Below, piece after piece: positions 1,951 to 35,995 of a stretch of 54,010 nt of DNA. Origin of the DNA: Candidatus Saccharimonadota bacterium (GTDB lineage Bacteria; Patescibacteriota; Saccharimonadia; Saccharimonadales; Saccharimonadaceae); the NCBI GenBank assembly GCA_037135295.1, contig JBAXKN010000001.1, positions 1 through 54,010 on the forward strand. Reading direction: 5' to 3'. The position numbers and the translations under genes are program-made. How positions within the stretch are numbered: position 1 is the first letter of the stretch; every line of letters begins with the position of its first letter. Below the pieces are notes generated by a model. That model worked only from the letters and a program-made list of their open reading frames with translations. It did not search any database and was not told the DNA's origin.

Positions 1951-2031
1951 AACTAATATCTCGAATTGAAAAAAAGATAACATTACTGTTATAATAATGT
2001 TAAATAATACAGTTTATTTTTAGGGGTATTT

Positions 2032-2448
2032 ATGGAAAATGAGCATAGAAAAGGGAAGAAGAAATCATATCATAAAGTAGTCTTGTTAATCATTGTATCA
2101 TTAGTTGTAATATTCTGTGTTGCAGGTATGATATTTTTCTATAATAAGTATCAAGATTTAAAAAATAATCCAGAACTAGTAGCTAAACAGCAGAATGAAT
2201 TGGTAGTTAACGAAATTGGTCAGTTGATGGTACTACCGAATGGCGAAGAACCCACTGTAGCAACTGTAACTGATAGTACTAAGCTATCTAGTCAAACTTT
2301 CTTTAAAGACTCAAAAAATGGAGACAAGGTTGTAGCTTATACAGTTGCCAAGAAAGTAATACTATACCGTCCATCAGTAAAAAAGATAATTAATATTGCG
2401 CCTTTCACGATAGATACAGGCAGCATAGAAGATTCGCAAAACAAATGA
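2032..2448 (+). CDS. hypothetical membrane-anchored protein
   Basis: 138-aa ORF: basic N-terminus, single TM helix (VVLLIIVSLVVIFCVAGMIFF), then a soluble domain. Confidence 0.6.
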   Translation: MENEHRKGKKKSYHKVVLLIIVSLVVIFCVAGMIFFYNKYQDLKNNPELVAKQQNELVVNEIGQLMVLPNGEEPTVATVTDSTKLSSQTFFKDSKNGDKVVAYTVAKKVILYRPSVKKIINIAPFTIDTGSIEDSQNK

Positions 2449-2463
2449 TAGGGGTAGTAAAAG

Positions 2464-4839
2464 GTGGCTATAAGTAGAAGAACATTTCTAATATCTACCG
2501 TAATAGTGGTTATTATAGTTTTTTCTAGTGCCTGGCTTATTAATGACGGTTTAAAGTCAAATTCCAGCAATTCAGTTTCAAATATTTTCACTGATGCTTA
2601 TTGTGGCGTATTTTCTAATGTTAATGATGATTGTATCGAAGGAATTCCAACCAAAGAGAGTAACACTATTATTGACAGTTCGCTAGATACTTCATCAATA
2701 GCACTGTCTAATTCATTAGGTGGAATAATTTCAATTGATGTTGGCGGTGGAGATGGTATTGTTGGACCTCAGGGTCCAATAGGATTAACTGGCCTAGAAG
2801 GTGATCAAGGTGCTTCAGGATCTCAAGGATTATCGGGTCAAACTGGCATTCAGGGACCTATAGGGTTAACTGGGTTGCAGGGTTCTCAAGGTTTACAGGG
2901 CGAAAAGGGGGATACAGGTTCACAAGGTGCTGATGGTATTAAGGGTGACACAGGCGCTCAAGGTATTCAAGGATTGCAGGGTTTACAAGGTATTCAGGGA
3001 GAAAAGGGTACTCAGGGTATTCAAGGACCGATTGGTTTAACAGGAGATCAAGGTATTCAGGGAGAAAAGGGTGATACAGGTTCACAGGGTACTCAGGGTA
3101 TTCAAGGACCTATTGGATTAACCGGTTCACAGGGCTTGCAAGGTGCACAGGGTGGACAAGGTAATCAAGGTATTCAGGGTATAGCTGGTGTGAATGGTCA
3201 AAGTATAGGCCAGTTATTTTGGTTTCGTGATGTAGATTCAGATATTACTGGTTATGAAAGTTTTTTGCGAGCACCAAGCGCAGGGAATGAAATAGAGGAA
3301 TCTACTGTCGCCCTAGTTTCAGATCAAGAGTATTTAATTGATTCATACGCAAGTGAATCTGGTGTGCCTGGTATTAGCAAGTTACCAGTCGGATTGTGGG
3401 AGTTTCATACTTATACTCATGTAACTGGTGGCACTGGCAACGTAATATACAGGATATATAAGAGAGATATTAGTGGAAACGAGACAGAGCTATTTAATAT
3501 CACGAGTGCTGACATAATAAATACATCTATTGACACAGAGGTGGTAACTAATTACACATACTCTGGATCAGCAGCCATGGAATCAACAGACAGAATAGTT
3601 GTTAAGATATTTGCGAAAAATAAAACCGCTGGTCAGTCTTCTGATTTTGTACATGATGGTACATCCCATGTTTCATATGTGATTACATCGTTAGGTGTTT
3701 CTGGAATAGTTGGTGCTCAAGGTATTCAGGGAATTCAGGGTACACAGGGTATTCAGGGATTGCAGGGCGTTCAAGGTATCCAAGGAGAAAAGGGGTTACA
3801 GGGTATTCAAGGACCTATTGGTTTAACGGGAGACCAAGGTATACAGGGAGAAAAGGGTGATACAGGTTCACAGGGCGCTCAGGGTATTCAAGGACCTATT
3901 GGATTAACTGGCTCACAAGGGTCGCAAGGCATACAGGGTGTTCAAGGTATTAAAGGTGACACAGGTTCACAAGGTATACAGGGAGAAAAGGGTGATACAG
4001 GTTCACAGGGCGCTCAGGGTATTCAAGGACCTATTGGATTAACTGGCTCACAGGGACTGCAAGGTATACAAGGAATCCAGGGTGTACAAGGTCTCCAAGG
4101 TGAGACTGGCTTATCCGTCGCTGGAAATGGGATTTCAATTGCAGGTAGTACTATCTCTGCAAAATTAAATGGAACATCAATATTAAACGGCGCAAGTGGT
4201 TTATCTATTAATTTGTCCAATGTTAACACATGGGCTGGGTTGCAGACATTCAACGGTGCGAAATTTGGTTCTGATGGCGTTAATTTTTCTCAATTCGAAA
4301 CTGATGGTACATTGGTTTTTGACGGCAATGCAACAGTATGGGATGATTTACGATTTCCTGCAACTGCCATAAATCCTGCAGGAGCAGCTATAGCGATGAC
4401 TTTCGATCCAGACCAAATAGGATTTATTTCAGCTGCAACAGGTACGCAGTCAATTGCTATAATCGGACAGATGCCGCATTCATGGAAAGTCGGATCTGAT
4501 ATCTATCCTCATATACACTGGAATCCAACAACTACCAATACTGGTAGTGTGCTATGGAGAATGGAATATAAGTGGACAAATATTAATGATACTGAACCGG
4601 CGGGTTTTACAACTGTTGATGTATTAGATCCGGGTGATGGAATTGCACTCAAGCACCAACTTATCGGATTCGGAGCAATATCGGGTGCAGGAAAAACATT
4701 ATCTAGTGGATTGACTATAAGAATATCAAGGATTGGTGGTGATGTAACAGATACATATACAGGCAATTCCTTGCTAAAAGAATTTGATATCCATTATGAA
4801 ATAGATACCTTAGGTTCCCGAACGGAGTCAGCAAAATGA
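2464..4839 (+). CDS. membrane-anchored collagen-like repeat protein with globular middle and C-terminal (tail-fiber-like) domains
   Basis: N-terminal TM helix. Two uninterrupted Gly-X-Y tracts (I count 50 and 46 triplets, Gln-rich, Pro-poor). They are separated by about 170 aa of non-repeat sequence and followed by a C-terminal domain of about 240 aa. The stop overlaps the next start (ATGA at 4836-4839). Confidence 0.9.
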   Translation: MAISRRTFLISTVIVVIIVFSSAWLINDGLKSNSSNSVSNIFTDAYCGVFSNVNDDCIEGIPTKESNTIIDSSLDTSSIALSNSLGGIISIDVGGGDGIVGPQGPIGLTGLEGDQGASGSQGLSGQTGIQGPIGLTGLQGSQGLQGEKGDTGSQGADGIKGDTGAQGIQGLQGLQGIQGEKGTQGIQGPIGLTGDQGIQGEKGDTGSQGTQGIQGPIGLTGSQGLQGAQGGQGNQGIQGIAGVNGQSIGQLFWFRDVDSDITGYESFLRAPSAGNEIEESTVALVSDQEYLIDSYASESGVPGISKLPVGLWEFHTYTHVTGGTGNVIYRIYKRDISGNETELFNITSADIINTSIDTEVVTNYTYSGSAAMESTDRIVVKIFAKNKTAGQSSDFVHDGTSHVSYVITSLGVSGIVGAQGIQGIQGTQGIQGLQGVQGIQGEKGLQGIQGPIGLTGDQGIQGEKGDTGSQGAQGIQGPIGLTGSQGSQGIQGVQGIKGDTGSQGIQGEKGDTGSQGAQGIQGPIGLTGSQGLQGIQGIQGVQGLQGETGLSVAGNGISIAGSTISAKLNGTSILNGASGLSINLSNVNTWAGLQTFNGAKFGSDGVNFSQFETDGTLVFDGNATVWDDLRFPATAINPAGAAIAMTFDPDQIGFISAATGTQSIAIIGQMPHSWKVGSDIYPHIHWNPTTTNTGSVLWRMEYKWTNINDTEPAGFTTVDVLDPGDGIALKHQLIGFGAISGAGKTLSSGLTIRISRIGGDVTDTYTGNSLLKEFDIHYEIDTLGSRTESAK
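2745..3200 (+). repeat. collagen-like Gly-X-Y tract 1 (coding)
   Basis: Runs from GIVGPQGPIGLTG to GIAGVNGQS. Contains recurring near-identical nucleotide blocks such as CAGGGTATTCAAGGACC-ATTGG-TTAAC. Confidence 0.9.
3703..4110 (+). repeat. collagen-like Gly-X-Y tract 2 (coding)
   Basis: Runs from GIVGAQGIQGIQG to GLQGETGLS. Shares long near-identical nucleotide blocks with tract 1 (for example around 3090-3125, 3880-3915 and 4015-4050). Confidence 0.9.
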
Positions 4840-6512
4840 TTAGTAAATCAAAACAATCTGCATTCACTATTGTCGAGCTTTTAGTGGTTATAGTGGTAAT
4901 TGGAATATTAGCAGCTATTACAATAATTTCATATACAGGTATTAGTCGAAAAGCCACAGAAGCATCATTACAATCAGACTTATCTGGCGCTTCAAGACAA
5001 TTAGAGATGTTTAAAGTAGACAACGGTTCATACCCTACCGCCCCATTGGGAGCAGGTAACTGTACAAATGATCCAAAATACTGTTTAAAACCAAGTTCTG
5101 GCAATACGTTTGACTATGCCGCAACTGGCTTAACTCCCCAGACATACAGCCTGACTGCCACAAATACTAGTAGCGGTATTAGCTATATAGTGACTGAGAG
5201 TACTAAACCTACATTGGCAGTTTCGGCTATAAATCCATTCGTAAAGGTTTACGGAGGGTCAGGTAGTGATTATGCTAGATCTTTAATTAAGACTAGTGAT
5301 GGTGGATTCGCCACTGTTGGAACCACAGACAGCTATGGCGAAGGAATGACCGATGCATTTATTGTAAAGTATAGTTCAAATGGAACAATATCTTGGAATA
5401 AAACATGGGGTGGTTCTTCGTCGGAAGCTGGTGATTCTATAGTACAAACTAGTGATGGTGGATTCGCTATTACTGGTAATACAGCTAGTTTTGGTGTTAA
5501 CGGTAGTCCTGATGTGTTTGTTGCAAAATATAGCGCTGACGGCTCATTATTGTGGGACACAACATGGGGTGATGCTAGCAGTGATTATGGCTATTCAATC
5601 ATTCAAACTAGTGATGGTGGTTTAGCTGTTACTGGGTATTTAACGAATGTAGATGGTCGTGAAGACGCAATTTTACTTAAATACACTTCTGGCGGTACAT
5701 ATTCATGGAGTAAAGCTACTAATGTCTGTGGTATATATGATCCCGATTATGGCAGGGCAATTATCCAAACTAGCGACGGCGGTTATTTAACTGTAGGTAA
5801 AGGTAGCAGGGCAAACGACGGTTTTAACGCTACAAGTAACGCTATTATAAAATACACTACTGATGGCACGGTGTCATGGTTAAAAACATGGAGCTATAAC
5901 GGATATAATAATATCGAGTCAGTTTTTCAAACTAGTGACGGTGGGTATATTGCCACAGGTTCAACGTCTAGCTATTCAAATGGGCTCAGTGTAATAAAGT
6001 TTAACTCTACTGGTGATTTGTTGTGGAATAGAGTATGGAGTGGAGGCAATACAAATTCTGATGGTGGTTATTCCATAATACAGACTAGTGATGGTGGTTT
6101 TGCAATTTCTGGATCAACCGAAATGTATGGCGCAGGTAATTTCGATGTTTTGCTTGCAAAATACAGCTCGGATGGAACTTTGGCATGGAGTAAAACTTGG
6201 GGAGGTTCTGGCTATGACTCAGGCGATTCATTAGTTCAAACTAGTGATGGTGGTTTTGTTATTACTGGCGTTACTGATAGCTATGGAACTGGAGGACAAG
6301 ACATGTTCTTGATAAAATTCAACTCCAGTGGTTCAATAGTCGGTTGTTCTTCACCTATTTGTCAAAGCCCATCAGCCAGTACTTTTAGCCCTGCAATGAC
6401 AATTCTTACACCATGGGCCCCATCGTTTACAAGTCCTTCGTTGCAAATTGGAAATCCATTAGCTATTTCAACAAGCCAACCGATTACTTCCACAGTTATC
6501 ATCGCTCCATAG
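4836..6512 (+). CDS. type IV pilin-like protein (prepilin N-terminal methylation motif) fused to a seven-repeat beta-propeller-like domain
   Basis: N-terminus KQSA/FTIVELLVVIVVIGILAAI is a class III signal/N-methylation motif. There are seven repeats of about 48 aa centred on TSDGG[FYL], resembling SBBP-type propeller repeats. Confidence 0.85.
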   Translation: MISKSKQSAFTIVELLVVIVVIGILAAITIISYTGISRKATEASLQSDLSGASRQLEMFKVDNGSYPTAPLGAGNCTNDPKYCLKPSSGNTFDYAATGLTPQTYSLTATNTSSGISYIVTESTKPTLAVSAINPFVKVYGGSGSDYARSLIKTSDGGFATVGTTDSYGEGMTDAFIVKYSSNGTISWNKTWGGSSSEAGDSIVQTSDGGFAITGNTASFGVNGSPDVFVAKYSADGSLLWDTTWGDASSDYGYSIIQTSDGGLAVTGYLTNVDGREDAILLKYTSGGTYSWSKATNVCGIYDPDYGRAIIQTSDGGYLTVGKGSRANDGFNATSNAIIKYTTDGTVSWLKTWSYNGYNNIESVFQTSDGGYIATGSTSSYSNGLSVIKFNSTGDLLWNRVWSGGNTNSDGGYSIIQTSDGGFAISGSTEMYGAGNFDVLLAKYSSDGTLAWSKTWGGSGYDSGDSLVQTSDGGFVITGVTDSYGTGGQDMFLIKFNSSGSIVGCSSPICQSPSASTFSPAMTILTPWAPSFTSPSLQIGNPLAISTSQPITSTVIIAP

Positions 6513-6600
6513 TTCGTGTGGTGTAAATTTGTAACAAACAAGTAAATAAAATTGACATAACCTTTATTTATGGGGTATTATATTATTAAAGGTTAGGGTC

Positions 6601-7014
6601 ATGGAAAACAAACAAAAAATATCCGAAGAACTAACAATTTATAATCTTGACGATTTGCCAGAACAAACCGATTATCCTGCAAGAGCAGTTTGTGAATTAA
6701 TCAAACCAGCGCTTAGAAGTATTATTGAAGACCGTCGAAGGTTAAATGATGTATATCTTGGTATTGGCGAAATCGTAAAAGATGTCGAAGTACATGGCGA
6801 TGATTCTGACCCAAGGTTGGTTATAGTTAGAAGAGAACTTGGGGGGGTCGCAATCGATACCGTAAATACAATAAAAGAACATACTGAACACAATGGATTA
6901 GGGAAAATTATTCTTGAAAGAGTTTTTGGAAAGAGCTATTCGTCAACAATCGAGGATGGTGTTTATCGCGGGCATTTATATATCAATAGGGATATTACAC
7001 TTCAAACTGAATAG
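6601..7014 (+). CDS. hypothetical protein
   Basis: 137-aa ATG ORF. No motif recognised. Confidence 0.55.
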   Translation: MENKQKISEELTIYNLDDLPEQTDYPARAVCELIKPALRSIIEDRRRLNDVYLGIGEIVKDVEVHGDDSDPRLVIVRRELGGVAIDTVNTIKEHTEHNGLGKIILERVFGKSYSSTIEDGVYRGHLYINRDITLQTE

Positions 7015-7056
7015 TAAAATGTAATATCATTTAATCAATTCTGTTATTATTGAAAT

Positions 7057-7656
7057 ATGAAGAGACAAGTATTAATAATCCATGGTGGAACAACATTTTC
7101 TAATTATGAAAAATATATTGATTATCTAAAAAATAAAATTGCGGATATTGATAAACTACAATATAGAATAGACTGGAAAGATTCAATCTCAGAAGATTTA
7201 GGTAATAAATATCAAGTCTTAGTCCCTAGAATGCCAAATAGCACAAACTCAAGATACGAGGAATGGAAAACTTGGTTCGAAAAGATTATTCCTTTATGTA
7301 AAAATGGTGTGATTCTTGTTGGTCATTCACTTGGAGGAATATTCCTAGCAAAATACCTGTCAAAAAATAATTTTCCTAAAAAAATTAAAGCGGTTTATTT
7401 GATCGCTGCTCCGTACGAAGATTTGGAGTTTGAGGAATTAGCTGATTTTTCACTTCCTAATTCACTTTCAAAATTCAATAATCAAGTTGATAATATTTTC
7501 TTAATACAAAGCAAAGATGACATAGTTGTGCCAGTGGATCATGTGTATATGTATAATAATGAACTATCAAATTCGAATGTTGTATTATTTGAAGGAAAAG
7601 CTCATTTCAAACAAGAACACTTTCCAGAATTAGTTAAATTAATCAAAAGTCTGTAG
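7057..7656 (+). CDS. alpha/beta serine hydrolase, YdeN/RBBP9-like
   Basis: About 200 aa. Starts LIIHGG and has the nucleophile elbow VGHSLGG. Late Asp and His candidates (DDIVVP, AHF). Confidence 0.6.
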   Translation: MKRQVLIIHGGTTFSNYEKYIDYLKNKIADIDKLQYRIDWKDSISEDLGNKYQVLVPRMPNSTNSRYEEWKTWFEKIIPLCKNGVILVGHSLGGIFLAKYLSKNNFPKKIKAVYLIAAPYEDLEFEELADFSLPNSLSKFNNQVDNIFLIQSKDDIVVPVDHVYMYNNELSNSNVVLFEGKAHFKQEHFPELVKLIKSL

Positions 7657-7683
7657 TGCTATTATTTCGAAGTATACTAAAAT

Positions 7684-15146: not shown

Positions 15147-17151
15147 GATAAGAGCCAAAGAACTCAGAGTTTTACTTGCTGATTATAGTTATGAGTATCA
15201 TGTTCTTGATGATCCATCAGTTAGTGACGCTGTATATGACAGCTTATTCAATGAATTAAAGAAAATTGAACAACAGTATCCTGACCTTGTGACTTTTGAT
15301 AGCCCAACGCAAAGAGTTGGTAGTGAACTATTGGGTGGTTTTAAAAAAGCTAAACATAGTTCACGTATGCTTAGTCTAAATGATGTTTTTGATCGTAGTG
15401 AGGTAGAGGCCTGGGTGAAACGAACTGACAAATTATTACCCGGAAGTAAACATGAATTTTTTGCTGATATTAAAATGGATGGCCTAGCATGTGCTTTGAT
15501 ATATATTGATGGGTTATTCACCAAAGCAATCACTCGTGGTGATAGTTTTGTCGGTGAAGATGTTACCGAAAATGTTAAAACAATTAAAAATATACCATTA
15601 AGTTTAAGAAGCGCTAAAGGATATGAATTTTTATTATTTGGCCGTACAGAAGTGCGTGGAGAAATTGTAATACTAAAGAAAGATTTCGAAAATCTAAACA
15701 AAAAACGTCGAGATTTAGATAAGGTTGAGTTTGCAAATCCTAGAAACTTAGCGGCGGGCACAATTCGTCAGCTTGATCCAAAACTTGTATCGAAAAGGCC
15801 ACTCCATTTCAGGGCTTACGATTTGATACGTGATGAACCAGGAGAAATAAAAACAAATATGTTTGCGTATGAAGGTCTAACAGCTATTGGTATAAGCAGA
15901 AATCAACAAGCTTCTGTATTTTGTAATATCAATGACGTTATGGATTTTGTGGATATTTGGGATAAAAAAAGGCATGACCTACCTTTTAATACCGACGGTC
16001 TAGTTATAAAAGTTAATAATCGTGATCAATTTTCTAAACTTGGTATTGTAGGAAAACAACCACGTGCGGCAGTTGCATATAAATATGCACCTGAACAGGC
16101 CACAACGGTTGTTAATGATATAGTTATTAGTATTGGTAGAACTGGAGCGGCGACTCCAGTAGCTGTATTTGAACCTGTAATTGTTGCAGGCACAAGAGTC
16201 CAACATGCAAGTTTGCATAATGCTGATGAAATTTCACGTCTAGATATTAGAATTGGTGATACTGTAGTCGTTTTCAAAGCAGGTGATATTATTCCTCAAG
16301 TGCAAGCTGTGGTTTTAGAACTACGACCTAAAAATACACTCAAATTTGATTTTTTAAAAGCTCTCGCAAGTCAATATCCTGAATTAGATTTTTATCGTCC
16401 TGAAGGTGAAGTTGTTTATCGTATAAAAGGTGCGACTGGAAAAATATTACTGAAGAAGTCACTAGAGCACTTTGCTAGTAAAAGTGCACTTGATGTCGAT
16501 ACATTAGGTGAAAAAAACGTGGTGGCGTTGGTTGATTCGGGCATCGTTAATGATATAGCTGATATTTTTTCGATTAGTGAAGAACAATTATTAAAGATTG
16601 ACAGATTTGCGCAGGTTTCTGCAGAAAAGTTAATTAATGCTATATCAAATAAAAAAACCCCAACAATTGAAAAATTTATTTATGGTCTTGGGATACGTCA
16701 TGTTGGTGTACAAACGGCAATCGATCTAGTAAATACTTTTCATTCACTTTATGAGCTGCAACAAGCTTCAATAGATAAACTACAGTCGATTGATGGAATC
16801 GGAGATGTAGTTGCTGAAAGTATAGTTGCCTGGTTTGCAGATCCAGAAAACGAAGATCTATTAAAAAAGTTCAAAAAACTTGGAGTAGATCCTATCTATG
16901 AAGCCAGATTCGGTAAATTGCTTGATCAAAATTTTGTTATCACAGGATCATTAAAAAATATTTCCAGGGATATGGCGGCTGATAAAATTCGTTCACTTGG
17001 TGGAACATTCCAAACTACTATTACTCACGATACAACATACCTAGTTGTTGGCGAAAAAATAGGCGCTAGTAAATTAAAAAAAGCGCAAGATTTTGATATA
17101 AATATTATTAATGAGTCAAAATTTGAAGAATTATTGGCTACCGCAACATGA
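15127..17151 (+). CDS. ligA: NAD-dependent DNA ligase
   Basis: Adenylation motif DIKMDGLA, OB and HhH regions, C-terminal BRCT-like segment (FVITGSL...YLVVGEKIGASKLKKA). I chose ATG 15127 over the TTG at 15121. Confidence 0.92.
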   Translation: MMQILPKIRAKELRVLLADYSYEYHVLDDPSVSDAVYDSLFNELKKIEQQYPDLVTFDSPTQRVGSELLGGFKKAKHSSRMLSLNDVFDRSEVEAWVKRTDKLLPGSKHEFFADIKMDGLACALIYIDGLFTKAITRGDSFVGEDVTENVKTIKNIPLSLRSAKGYEFLLFGRTEVRGEIVILKKDFENLNKKRRDLDKVEFANPRNLAAGTIRQLDPKLVSKRPLHFRAYDLIRDEPGEIKTNMFAYEGLTAIGISRNQQASVFCNINDVMDFVDIWDKKRHDLPFNTDGLVIKVNNRDQFSKLGIVGKQPRAAVAYKYAPEQATTVVNDIVISIGRTGAATPVAVFEPVIVAGTRVQHASLHNADEISRLDIRIGDTVVVFKAGDIIPQVQAVVLELRPKNTLKFDFLKALASQYPELDFYRPEGEVVYRIKGATGKILLKKSLEHFASKSALDVDTLGEKNVVALVDSGIVNDIADIFSISEEQLLKIDRFAQVSAEKLINAISNKKTPTIEKFIYGLGIRHVGVQTAIDLVNTFHSLYELQQASIDKLQSIDGIGDVVAESIVAWFADPENEDLLKKFKKLGVDPIYEARFGKLLDQNFVITGSLKNISRDMAADKIRSLGGTFQTTITHDTTYLVVGEKIGASKLKKAQDFDINIINESKFEELLATAT

Positions 17152-20785: not shown

Positions 20786-21751
20786 ATGATAATCAAACAA
20801 ACATCTAAGTCCTCTGCCTTCACAATAGTCGAACTCCTGGTAGTAGTAGTAGTAATAGGCATACTAGCAGCGATAACGATAGTTAGTTATACAGGTGTAA
20901 GTAAAAAAGCTAAAGAAGCTTCATTACAATCAGATTTAACTGGAGCATCTAAACAGTTAGAGATGTATAAAGTAGATAATAGTTACTATCCAAAATCTAT
21001 AAATGGTGATAATTGTCCATTGAATTCTGGCAATATTGTTGATACTAGATATTGCCTAAAATCAAGTTCAGGTAATACATATAATTATGAACCTGGCTCA
21101 CCGGTTGACAACGCTCAAACCTATAGTCTAAATGCCACAGATCCTGGGTCAACGGTTGTATACACTATTACAAATTCTTCCGCTCCAACTATAGCTGATT
21201 TAATACCTACTGTTATAATCGGTACTCAATTTTGGATGAAATATAATATGAATGTCGGCACAAAAGTAAATGGTGGAGTAAATCAATCGATAGGACAAAA
21301 ATGGTGTTACGCAAATCTTGAAAGTAACTGTACATCTGGTGGTGGGTTGTATCAATGGGACACCGCTATGAAAGGTTCAACCACAGAGGCTGCGCAAGGT
21401 ATTTGTCCGACTGGTTTTCACATTCCAACAGATACAGAGTATAAAACACTAGAAAAATATCTTGGTATGTCTCAGGTTGATGCAGATACTATTGGTGAAA
21501 GGGGTACAGATCAAGCTACAAAATTAATCAACGGTGGATCTAGTGGTTTTAATTTATTACTTACAGGTCAGTATTGGGGGTGGTTTGATTATGTTGGTGT
21601 TTTTGGTGGGGTCTGGACTAGTTCACAATATTCGGTTGAGCCTACGGCCGCATGGTATCGTAGCTTCGATACTGGCTATTATCCAGGTTTGGTAAATAGA
21701 TTTGCGTCTGATAAGACCGACAATTTTTCCGTTCGTTGTCTAAAAAATTAA
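20786..21751 (+). CDS. type IV pilin-like protein fused to a Fibrobacter succinogenes major paralogous (Fib_succ_major) domain
   Basis: N-terminus KSSA/FTIVELLVVVVVIGILAAI. The C-terminal half has FWMKYNMNVG, GGLYQWDTAM, CPTGFHIPTDTEYKTL and SVRCLKN, all typical of the TIGR02145-type domain. Confidence 0.8.
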   Translation: MIIKQTSKSSAFTIVELLVVVVVIGILAAITIVSYTGVSKKAKEASLQSDLTGASKQLEMYKVDNSYYPKSINGDNCPLNSGNIVDTRYCLKSSSGNTYNYEPGSPVDNAQTYSLNATDPGSTVVYTITNSSAPTIADLIPTVIIGTQFWMKYNMNVGTKVNGGVNQSIGQKWCYANLESNCTSGGGLYQWDTAMKGSTTEAAQGICPTGFHIPTDTEYKTLEKYLGMSQVDADTIGERGTDQATKLINGGSSGFNLLLTGQYWGWFDYVGVFGGVWTSSQYSVEPTAAWYRSFDTGYYPGLVNRFASDKTDNFSVRCLKN

Positions 21752-35523: not shown

Positions 35524-35995
35524 GAATTTCAAAAAATACTTTAGTAAAAAAAATCAAATACAGGAAATAGTTCGTGAGCCGACCTCTGGTGGTATTATTT
35601 TTCGTCGTGATAAAAATGATGGCGTTGAGATTTTATTAATTCAAGATGGAAAAGATCGCTGGACTATTCCAAAAGGTCATATCGAAGAAGGCGAAACTGC
35701 TGAACAAACAGCAAAGCGTGAAATTAATGAAGAGGCAGGTCTTTCTGATGTTGATATATTGGGGTGGCTAGGTAAGATACATTTTCGTTATCGACGTGTT
35801 GATAAGTTAGTCCTAATGACTACTCAAATTTATCTTGTTCGTGCCAAAGGCGATACCACTGCAATTCAAAAAGAAGAATGGATGAATGGTATAAAATGGT
35901 TCAAGTTTAATGATGCACTTGATGCAATTGAATATGAAGATATTGGAAAATTAATGTTACTAGCTATGAAGCGAATTAGACAGGAGAATTTATGA
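35504..35995 (+). CDS. Nudix hydrolase
   Basis: Nudix box [24 protein letters not shown] moved the start to ATG 35504, with GAGGAA 7 nt upstream. It overlaps the nusB end by 20 nt. Confidence 0.85.

Follow-up and report, generated by a model that had tools for sequence, protein, structure and literature searches.

Collagen-like surface proteins such as BclA of the Bacillus exosporium and Scl1/2 of Streptococcus combine N-terminal attachment, a Gly-X-Y stalk that lacks hydroxyproline and differs in length between strains, and a globular β-sandwich domain, which in BclA trimerises and caps the fibre. How ultrasmall episymbiotic bacteria choose and hold their host bacteria is poorly known, and type IV pili are so far their sole demonstrated host-contact factor (PMC11623550, PMC9894109). 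In Nanosynbacter lyticus TM7x, the thin type IV pilus needs PilX2, a minor pilin with a heptabladed propeller, to bind the host efficiently (PMC11623550). The mosaic adhesive trimer (MAT) fibres of Bdellovibrio bacteriovorus are chromosomally encoded, phage-like trimers with swapped tips, one of which binds prey glycans, and the swapping of tips on near-identical stalks has been documented (PMC10769870). Here we describe a collagen-like fibre gene found in a 54,010-nt stretch of DNA from Candidatus Saccharimonadota bacterium (assembly GCA_037135295.1, contig JBAXKN010000001.1, positions 1 to 54,010; the whole stretch is referred to as the window). The draft genome (0.80 Mb, 78 contigs, 97.5% complete) is probably that of a tiny, episymbiotic cell of the Saccharibacteria type, and the sources of homologous proteins label them Saccharibacteria or Saccharimonadales. 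Our literature search yielded no account of collagen-like proteins from Saccharibacteria or Patescibacteria.

The explanation that we favour, and consider fairly probable, is that the gene encodes a cell-anchored surface fibre built of phage-type modules, which works with a small transmembrane (TM) partner protein in contact with other cells. As a candidate for recognition the fibre is rare and well defined, and the finding involves three domain families for which neither Pfam nor PHROG has a model. The two genes and the parts of the fibre protein are as follows, with residues in amino acids (aa) and model confidence given as the predicted local distance difference test (pLDDT):

2032..2448, + strand: small membrane protein, 138 aa, with an N-terminal TM helix and an extracytoplasmic domain of ~100 aa
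2464..4839 including the stop, + strand: collagen-like fibre gene, 791 aa, GTG start (reading of the open reading frame (ORF), Pfam)
2482..2541, + strand: signal-anchor TM helix, aa 7-26 (direct reading of the sequence)
2746..3204, + strand: collagen tract 1, aa 95-247, 51 unbroken G-X-Y triplets (strict G-X-Y scan)
3205..3693, + strand: middle globular domain (knob), aa 248-410, jelly-roll β-sandwich (AlphaFold2 pLDDT 96.7)
3694..4116, + strand: collagen tract 2, aa 411-551, 47 unbroken G-X-Y triplets (strict G-X-Y scan)
4117..4386, + strand: neck, aa 552-641, short β strands (pLDDT 48-86 as a monomer)
4387..4836, + strand: tip domain, aa 642-791, jelly roll (core pLDDT 93-98)

BclA, Scl1/2 and the window protein all match the Pfam Collagen family (PF01391), and the BclA type is the closest in layout. 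The window protein differs in having two stalks parted by a knob, in having tracts rich in Gln, Ile and Leu where BclA has GPT repeats, and in being anchored by a TM helix instead of by exosporium or sortase attachment. Its score against the Collagen family (153.7 bits, cut-off 27.2, E = 1e-45) supports its assignment as a membrane-anchored collagen-like protein, and its gene is the only collagen-repeat gene of the 0.8-Mb genome. The N-terminus (MAISRR, with an RR pair) is followed by a hydrophobic stretch of 19-20 residues at aa 7-26 and then by a Cys-x9-11-Cys loop (C47, C57). Both the hydrophobic stretch and the loop (AYCG...C) recur in the related proteins P0002 and P0003, in the genome G003, and in the metagenomic loci L042, L043 and L044. 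The predicted topology is that of a type II signal-anchor protein (N-in/C-out), which would place the C-terminal 765 residues outside the membrane. An earlier reading of the letters made without database searches (the sequence-only reading) had given the protein 791 aa and a TM helix at its N-terminus, and direct inspection of the ORF and of the hydrophobic segment agrees with it.

The same reading reported two unbroken tracts of 50 and 46 triplets; the tracts are indeed unbroken, and the counts are corrected here to 51 and 47. Its description of them as Gln-rich and Pro-poor is borne out by the composition, with Gln in 56 of the 98 Y positions (57%), Pro in 8 of the 196 X and Y positions together (4%), and mostly Ile and Leu at X. 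Because Pro is so scarce, the stability of a triple helix would have to come from other residues. If triple-helical (0.286 nm per residue), tract 1 would measure ~44 nm and tract 2 ~40 nm. The whole protein matches PHROG tail-fibre families, mostly due to its collagen repeats. Its three non-collagen parts, searched singly, have no match in PHROGs, Pfam or PDB sequences, and no S74 domain was matched in the fibre protein.

The knob corresponds to the globular insert that had been noticed between the tracts, and its fold is predicted with high confidence. Its nearest match in Foldseek is the jelly roll at the C-terminus of CocE/NonD hydrolases (TMq 0.65-0.74), with carbohydrate-binding module and TNF-like folds among the lower-ranked matches. 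The knob family comprises 1,501 representatives at E<=1e-3 in a library of 1.8 billion proteins clustered at 50%, and its members often stand directly after a collagen tract. Partner domains in 47 sampled members include Collagen (19), Peptidase_S74 (3), Gp5_trimer_C and K1-lyase_C, which are modules typical of phage fibres or spikes. Some members of this family (proteins P0034-P0182) have two or three copies of the knob per protein. Among deposited phage genomes the knob is present in 3 of 50,697 records, all of them huge uncultured phages (640-735 kb). No Pfam or PHROG model covers the knob, and neither sequence nor profile search finds a solved structure for it; the PDB profile match of the knob alignment to BclA (1wck) lies in collagen columns only.

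The C-terminal region (aa 552-791) is predicted as a monomer with a mean pLDDT of 83, with a jelly-roll core at 93-98 and pLDDT <=60 over the first ~50 residues, which belong to the neck. The neck is probably an intertwined trimer. Neck-like repeats (aa 3-55 of the C-terminal region) also recur several times, ~1 kb apart, within giant ORFs (2,710-3,061 aa) that belong to two further genomes of the order (L047, L049, L051 and L052 on G270:C25; L046 and L050 on G303:C1), which suggests that this neck unit is also built into very long repeat fibres. In an alignment of 33 sequences of the C-terminal region, D628, H672, H683, Y702, R756, H777 and G784 are invariant, and H685 of the tip is kept in at least 90%. 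The invariant His/Asp/Arg/Tyr set suggests a candidate metal or ligand site in the tip.

The sequence-only reading had likened this domain to the tips of phage tail fibres, and the comparison holds, since the family ends phage tail proteins. The tip is 33% identical (E = 6e-24) to the C-terminus of P0021, a 1,359-aa lambda-J-like protein whose gene comes after those for the tail terminator, the tube, the tape measure and M, L, K and I, all within a complete siphophage tail module. Two further tip relatives (P0020 and P0009) are in phage contigs, and another forms the C-terminal end of a Rhodobacteraceae phage protein encoded between a 'distal tail protein' and a 'tail spike'. Deposited phage genomes contain the tip in 1 of 50,697 records. 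By fold, the best viral matches are the ends of collagen-repeat proteins of Catovirus and Klosneuvirus (E = 1e-14 and 2e-13, TMq 0.63-0.64). The top PDB match is the lambda gpJ tail-tip protein, at a weak level (E = 2.6e-4, TMq 0.26), with other jelly rolls next, and Foldseek matches to TNF ligands are weak (TMq 0.23-0.25). The tip has no Pfam, PHROG or PDB sequence match and no solved structure by profile search, and the BclA_C, C1q and TNF families of Pfam do not match the C-terminal domain of the fibre. Tip domains are also found without a stalk, in short independent proteins (200-375 aa) whose N-termini resemble signal peptides and which are encoded on JGI metagenome contigs (L066, L069, L071, L075-L078).

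Comparison of family members points to exchange of the tip. Between L042 and L044 the knob is 78% identical and the neck 73%, compared with 29% for the tip, a pattern expected for ligand-specific heads; conversely, P0004 (L040) carries a window-like tip (71% identity) on an unrelated stalk. The family shows the mosaic pattern of receptor-binding proteins, with tips exchanged between lineages.

The stalks also differ between species, over a family-wide range of 22-51 triplets per tract. Tract 1 has 29, 30, 33, 39 or 41 triplets in relatives and tract 2 has 31, 36, 38, 47 or 51, so that the comparison of tract lengths proposed with the sequence-only reading does show differences among relatives. 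The members fall into two layouts:

Two-stalk members, ~700-790 aa: first tract of 29-51 triplets, second tract of 31-51
L043, 415 aa: TM helix, Cys loop, 22 triplets, neck and tip, without the knob

The near-identical nucleotide blocks that had been pointed out within and between the tracts are present, as an exact 83-bp direct repeat within tract 2 (3835-3917 and 3970-4052), exact blocks of 31-32 bp common to both tracts, and a 213-nt block with 86% identity between tract 1 and tract 2. In three further assemblies of this strain, made from different samples, not a base differs from the window in the 4,481 bp between the start of the small TM gene and the end of the pilin gene described below, or in as much of it as they cover; one of the three breaks off at 4023, inside the 83-bp repeat.

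The small TM gene ends 15 nt upstream of the fibre gene. All seven loci out of seven have the two genes side by side and in one orientation (the window, L001/L009, L008, L042, L043, L044 and L040), including L040, where the small TM gene lies downstream of the fibre gene for P0004 with an 11-nt overlap (40% identity, E = 2e-29). The closest metagenomic relatives of the small protein (55-59% identity), picked by similarity to this protein alone, are in 3 of 3 cases followed by a fibre gene within 31-40 nt. Within the genus, strong matches to the small TM gene occur in the same 3 of 62 genomes that have the fibre gene, with marginal matches (E ~3e-4) in two other genus genomes. The protein is equivalent to the N-terminal module of a broad Patescibacteria family ('LytR_C domain-containing' proteins), the longer members of which add LytR_C, and it has no Pfam model and no PHROG match. 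Because the adjacency holds in all seven loci and is kept through inverted gene order, there is good evidence that 2032-2448 and 2464-4839 form a conserved two-gene unit encoding a functional pair.

The fibre gene has a chromosomal, non-prophage setting. Housekeeping genes in the window include nrdJ, cobO, the NAD-ligase gene ligA and genes for LeuRS, a Mur ligase, LemA and an M48 peptidase, and the fibre gene itself is flanked by nrdJ, cobO, ligA, a Nudix gene and a hydrolase gene. The same slot is used in three species (the window genome, G003 and G032), with the fibre gene upstream of cobO-DUF6580-DUF4430-nrdJ-trx. Capsid, portal, terminase, tail and integrase families are absent among the flanking ORFs scanned in the window and those called in six related loci, and the Nudix ORF near the fibre gene has PHROG matches of the Nudix type only. 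The flanks in all these loci hold housekeeping genes or cellular genes of unassigned function. The check for a surrounding prophage thus places the gene outside one.

The interval upstream of cobO differs in each species examined (window 4840-7683; L001 12167-12687; L008 5252-7377; L038 7860-11918). It holds the pilin-propeller gene, a 137-aa ORF and a hydrolase gene in the window genome, nothing or DUF378 in G032, an Nramp transporter gene in G003, and DUF378, gpmI and eno, without the fibre pair, in G002; it appears to be a rearrangement hot spot. At the start of the window, the 3' end of a tRNA-Gly gene has an exact 21-nt copy 143 bp downstream of the tRNA (34-54 and 177-197). This duplication lies 2.3 kb upstream of the fibre gene, encloses no genes and has the look of a trace left by a small integration or excision; as no third copy exists in the window, the fibre region is not bracketed by it.

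Downstream of the fibre gene in the window is a pilin gene, and a promoter-like site lies upstream of the small TM gene:

1966..1995, + strand: promoter-like site TTGAAA-18-TATAAT with TG, 11/12 (consensus match only)
4836..6512, + strand: type IV pilin-like protein with a DUF5122/delta-60 propeller, 558 aa (N_methyl, PF17164, TSDGG repeats)

The start codon of the pilin gene lies within the ATGA at 4836-4839, overlapping the fibre stop as had been reported. The description of its product as a type IV pilin with seven TSDGG repeats also stands, with N_methyl (27.7 bits, cut-off 21.2) and DUF5122 (PF17164; 39.5 bits over the whole protein, cut-off 27) both above threshold. On direct reading the class III signal is KQSA/FTIVELLVVI, with Glu5 and with Ala, not Gly, at -1. 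The TSDGG motifs are spaced 51-54 aa apart and would correspond to the blades of a seven-bladed, pilin-borne propeller, followed by a Ser/Pro/Thr-rich C-terminal tail. Over 7,700 relatives of the propeller were found, and N_methyl+DUF5122 proteins from Saccharibacteria account for many of these; since this fusion is common there, the pilin-propeller is already of a known kind. Its N-terminal module (~130 aa) has ~30 matches in the window genome, ~13 of them at 50-66% identity, in open frames of 240-580 aa (e.g. C5:12242-12652, C12:19249-19641, C29:3125-3514 and window 20786-21751), which looks like a large modular pilin family with exchangeable heads. The genome encodes two PilB-type ATPases and one PilT-type ATPase (C2:33809-35905, C6:6788-8038), and the pilin-propeller gene is located away from these PilB/PilT genes on contigs C2 and C6. 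For all these pilin genes, the draft (97.5% complete) gave no match to a prepilin peptidase (Peptidase_A24).

The window pilin resembles PilX2 in being of the Saccharibacteria minor-pilin type with a C-terminal propeller, a comparison made by description, not by sequence. PilX2 is described with RCC1 repeats and in a pilus locus, whereas the window protein has DUF5122/delta-60 repeats, not RCC1. We treat it as a minor pilin of a separate type IV pilus, of the PilX2-like kind, and as a lineage-specific neighbour of the fibre gene, not a conserved partner.

The distribution of the two genes is in line with this assignment. Among 62 genus genomes the tip is found in the window genome and in G003 and G032 (79% identity), plus one weak match. 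No pilin gene stands beside the fibre gene in any other family locus with a readable flank. A 522-bp spacer follows the fibre gene in G032 (L001) and an opposite-strand Nramp-type transporter gene in G003 (L008), and over all these loci the next gene downstream is cobO, an Nramp gene or one for a lipoprotein, except that in L040 the small TM gene and then an opposite-strand ORF come after the fibre gene. The metagenomic members L040, L042, L043 and L044 are all without a pilin neighbour where the flank is present. The propeller is encoded in 11 of the 61 other genus genomes, often in many copies and in varied contexts, and none of these has the fibre gene.

The promoter-like site at 1966-1995 is the best in the region and lies 37 nt upstream of the small TM gene, although the total number of promoter-like sites in the region is not above that in shuffled sequences; the next site (6552-6581) follows the pilin gene. 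Between 1966 and 6512 there is no terminator-like site except one low-quality match inside coding sequence. Given a promoter-like site upstream and no convincing terminator, the pilin gene could share the fibre transcript, and 2032-6512 could be a single transcript in this strain. The pilin-propeller may thus be co-transcribed with the fibre in this lineage.

The sequence-only reading went further and regarded the fibre and the pilin-borne propeller as translationally coupled parts of one host-attachment appendage. The ATGA stop/start overlap is real, no terminator-like site separates the genes, and the same arrangement recurs in three other assemblies of the strain. In other organisms a TM anchor, a short collagen tract (14-19 triplets) and one or two DUF5122/delta-60 propellers are joined in a single chain (P0324, P0338, P0345, P0347, P0348, P0357, P0387), and such fusions, among them P0324, P0338 and P0345, speak for the coupling. 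They are a weak hint for it here, because the window fibre has its own tip. The two genes are unlinked in related genomes, the pilin being absent from the other readable fibre loci and the propeller-bearing genomes of the genus being different ones from those with the fibre gene, and this argues directly against the pairing. The pilin is moreover one of ~30 pilin-module matches scattered over the genome, and ATGA overlaps join unrelated pairs too, namely NAD-ligase/ZIP transporter at 17148 and another pair at 35992. We consider a coupled appendage the least likely of the explanations discussed here. It is likewise very improbable that the gene codes for an ordinary tail fibre that does nothing for the cell and belongs to a tailocin, a prophage or what is left of one. 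This reading would account for the PHROG tail-fibre matches of the whole protein (mostly repeat-driven), for the tip and knob shared with phage proteins, for the patchy distribution and for the duplicated tRNA-Gly 3' end upstream. It is at odds with the lack of phage families among the flanking ORFs of the window and six related loci, with a conserved N-terminal TM anchor, which tail fibres lack, with a conserved partner from a cellular Patescibacteria family that has no PHROG match, and with a housekeeping slot common to three species, while the tRNA-end copies have no genes between them. With no phage genes beside it, the fibre gene is therefore not that of an ordinary prophage fibre.

A rival with more to recommend it, although still unlikely, is that the fibres form a passive coat or spacer, a BclA-like hairy nap that serves cell distance, hydration or protection (e.g. 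against phages), with a tip that has no specific ligand. The layout is that of BclA (anchor, variable collagen stalk and C-terminal β-sandwich cap), the stalk length varies between species, and the fold search returned only weak TNF-like matches. However, phage tail proteins carry members of the tip and knob families at the ends that bind receptors, whole tips are exchanged on a conserved stalk (29% against 73-78% identity), and the invariant His/Asp/Arg/Tyr set suggests a defined site in the tip. Several observations weigh against the cell-contact fibre that we favour. The gene is rare, being present in 3 of 62 genus genomes, and the tip core has one weak match in 400 sampled genomes of the order; it is therefore not a general requirement of the lifestyle. 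The family of the small partner is broad, most of its members being longer, with LytR_C, and the linkage comparison covered a minority of it; the role assigned to the partner is a guess. The overlap of the pilin gene with the fibre gene, stable in four assemblies and with no terminator between, makes co-expression here possible, and the single-chain fusions imply that stalk and propeller can work in one structure.

For the favoured cell-contact fibre, the following mechanism can be proposed. An uncleaved N-terminal signal-anchor would hold the protein in the cytoplasmic membrane, and three chains would most likely form a surface fibre of ~90-100 nm, a length that would take it past the wall of a cell measuring a few hundred nm across. 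From the membrane outwards the fibre would comprise a Cys-loop linker, the ~44-nm stalk, the jelly-roll knob, the ~40-nm stalk, the neck, and the tip with its conserved His/Asp cluster; the trimeric knob would separate two triple helices and the trimeric tip would cap the fibre. The small TM protein would probably aid insertion of the fibre in the envelope, nucleation of the trimer or anchoring. The tip, and perhaps the lectin-like knob too, would most likely bind a surface ligand on another cell, for example the host bacterium of the episymbiont, while stalk length would change through the repetitive DNA of the tracts. As knob and tip are otherwise carried by phage tail fibres, J-type tail-tip proteins and giant-virus collagen fibrils, the cell would have its own phage-style receptor-binding fibre.

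A bolder version, which we put forward only tentatively and hold to be doubtful, is that a subset of Saccharibacteria has placed a phage receptor-binding end on a double collagen stalk, with a dedicated small protein, and recognises a host ligand as phages do. Host range would then be retuned by tip swaps and reach by stalk length, perhaps, in this strain, with a co-expressed PilX2-like adhesin at the pilus tip, so that one transcript would give two tiers of recognition. If the proposal is true, a phage-type tip on a cell-anchored fibre would be a second, modular recognition device of these bacteria. The ~150-residue tip, the knob family with ~1,500 representatives and the small conserved partner, all without a Pfam or PHROG model, offer experimental handles.

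By descent of the tip and knob, the closest relatives of the fibre are phage J-type and fibre proteins and giant-virus collagen fibrils. It differs from the phage proteins in that its gene lies among housekeeping genes and its product is membrane-anchored and paired with a cellular small TM protein. In function, the closest system would be the MAT fibres, a resemblance that is functional and architectural only. Both are chromosomal, outside prophages and phage-tail-fibre-like, in cells that live, or in the present case probably live, on other bacteria. They share a constant end next to the cell and exchangeable C-terminal β-sandwich tips, the swap being seen here between L042 and L044. The MAT stalk is a β-helix/β-prism, whereas the stalk here is collagen; MAT fibres are held on a diderm surface through a conserved N-terminal domain, whereas a TM helix takes this part here; and no counterpart of the small TM partner has been described for MAT fibres. 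Structures of MAT tips are in the PDB (PMC10769870), whereas neither globular domain of the window fibre matches any solved structure by sequence. The fibre would thus add a collagen-stalked case to the pattern established by MAT fibres, in which bacteria that live on bacteria reuse the parts of phage fibres.

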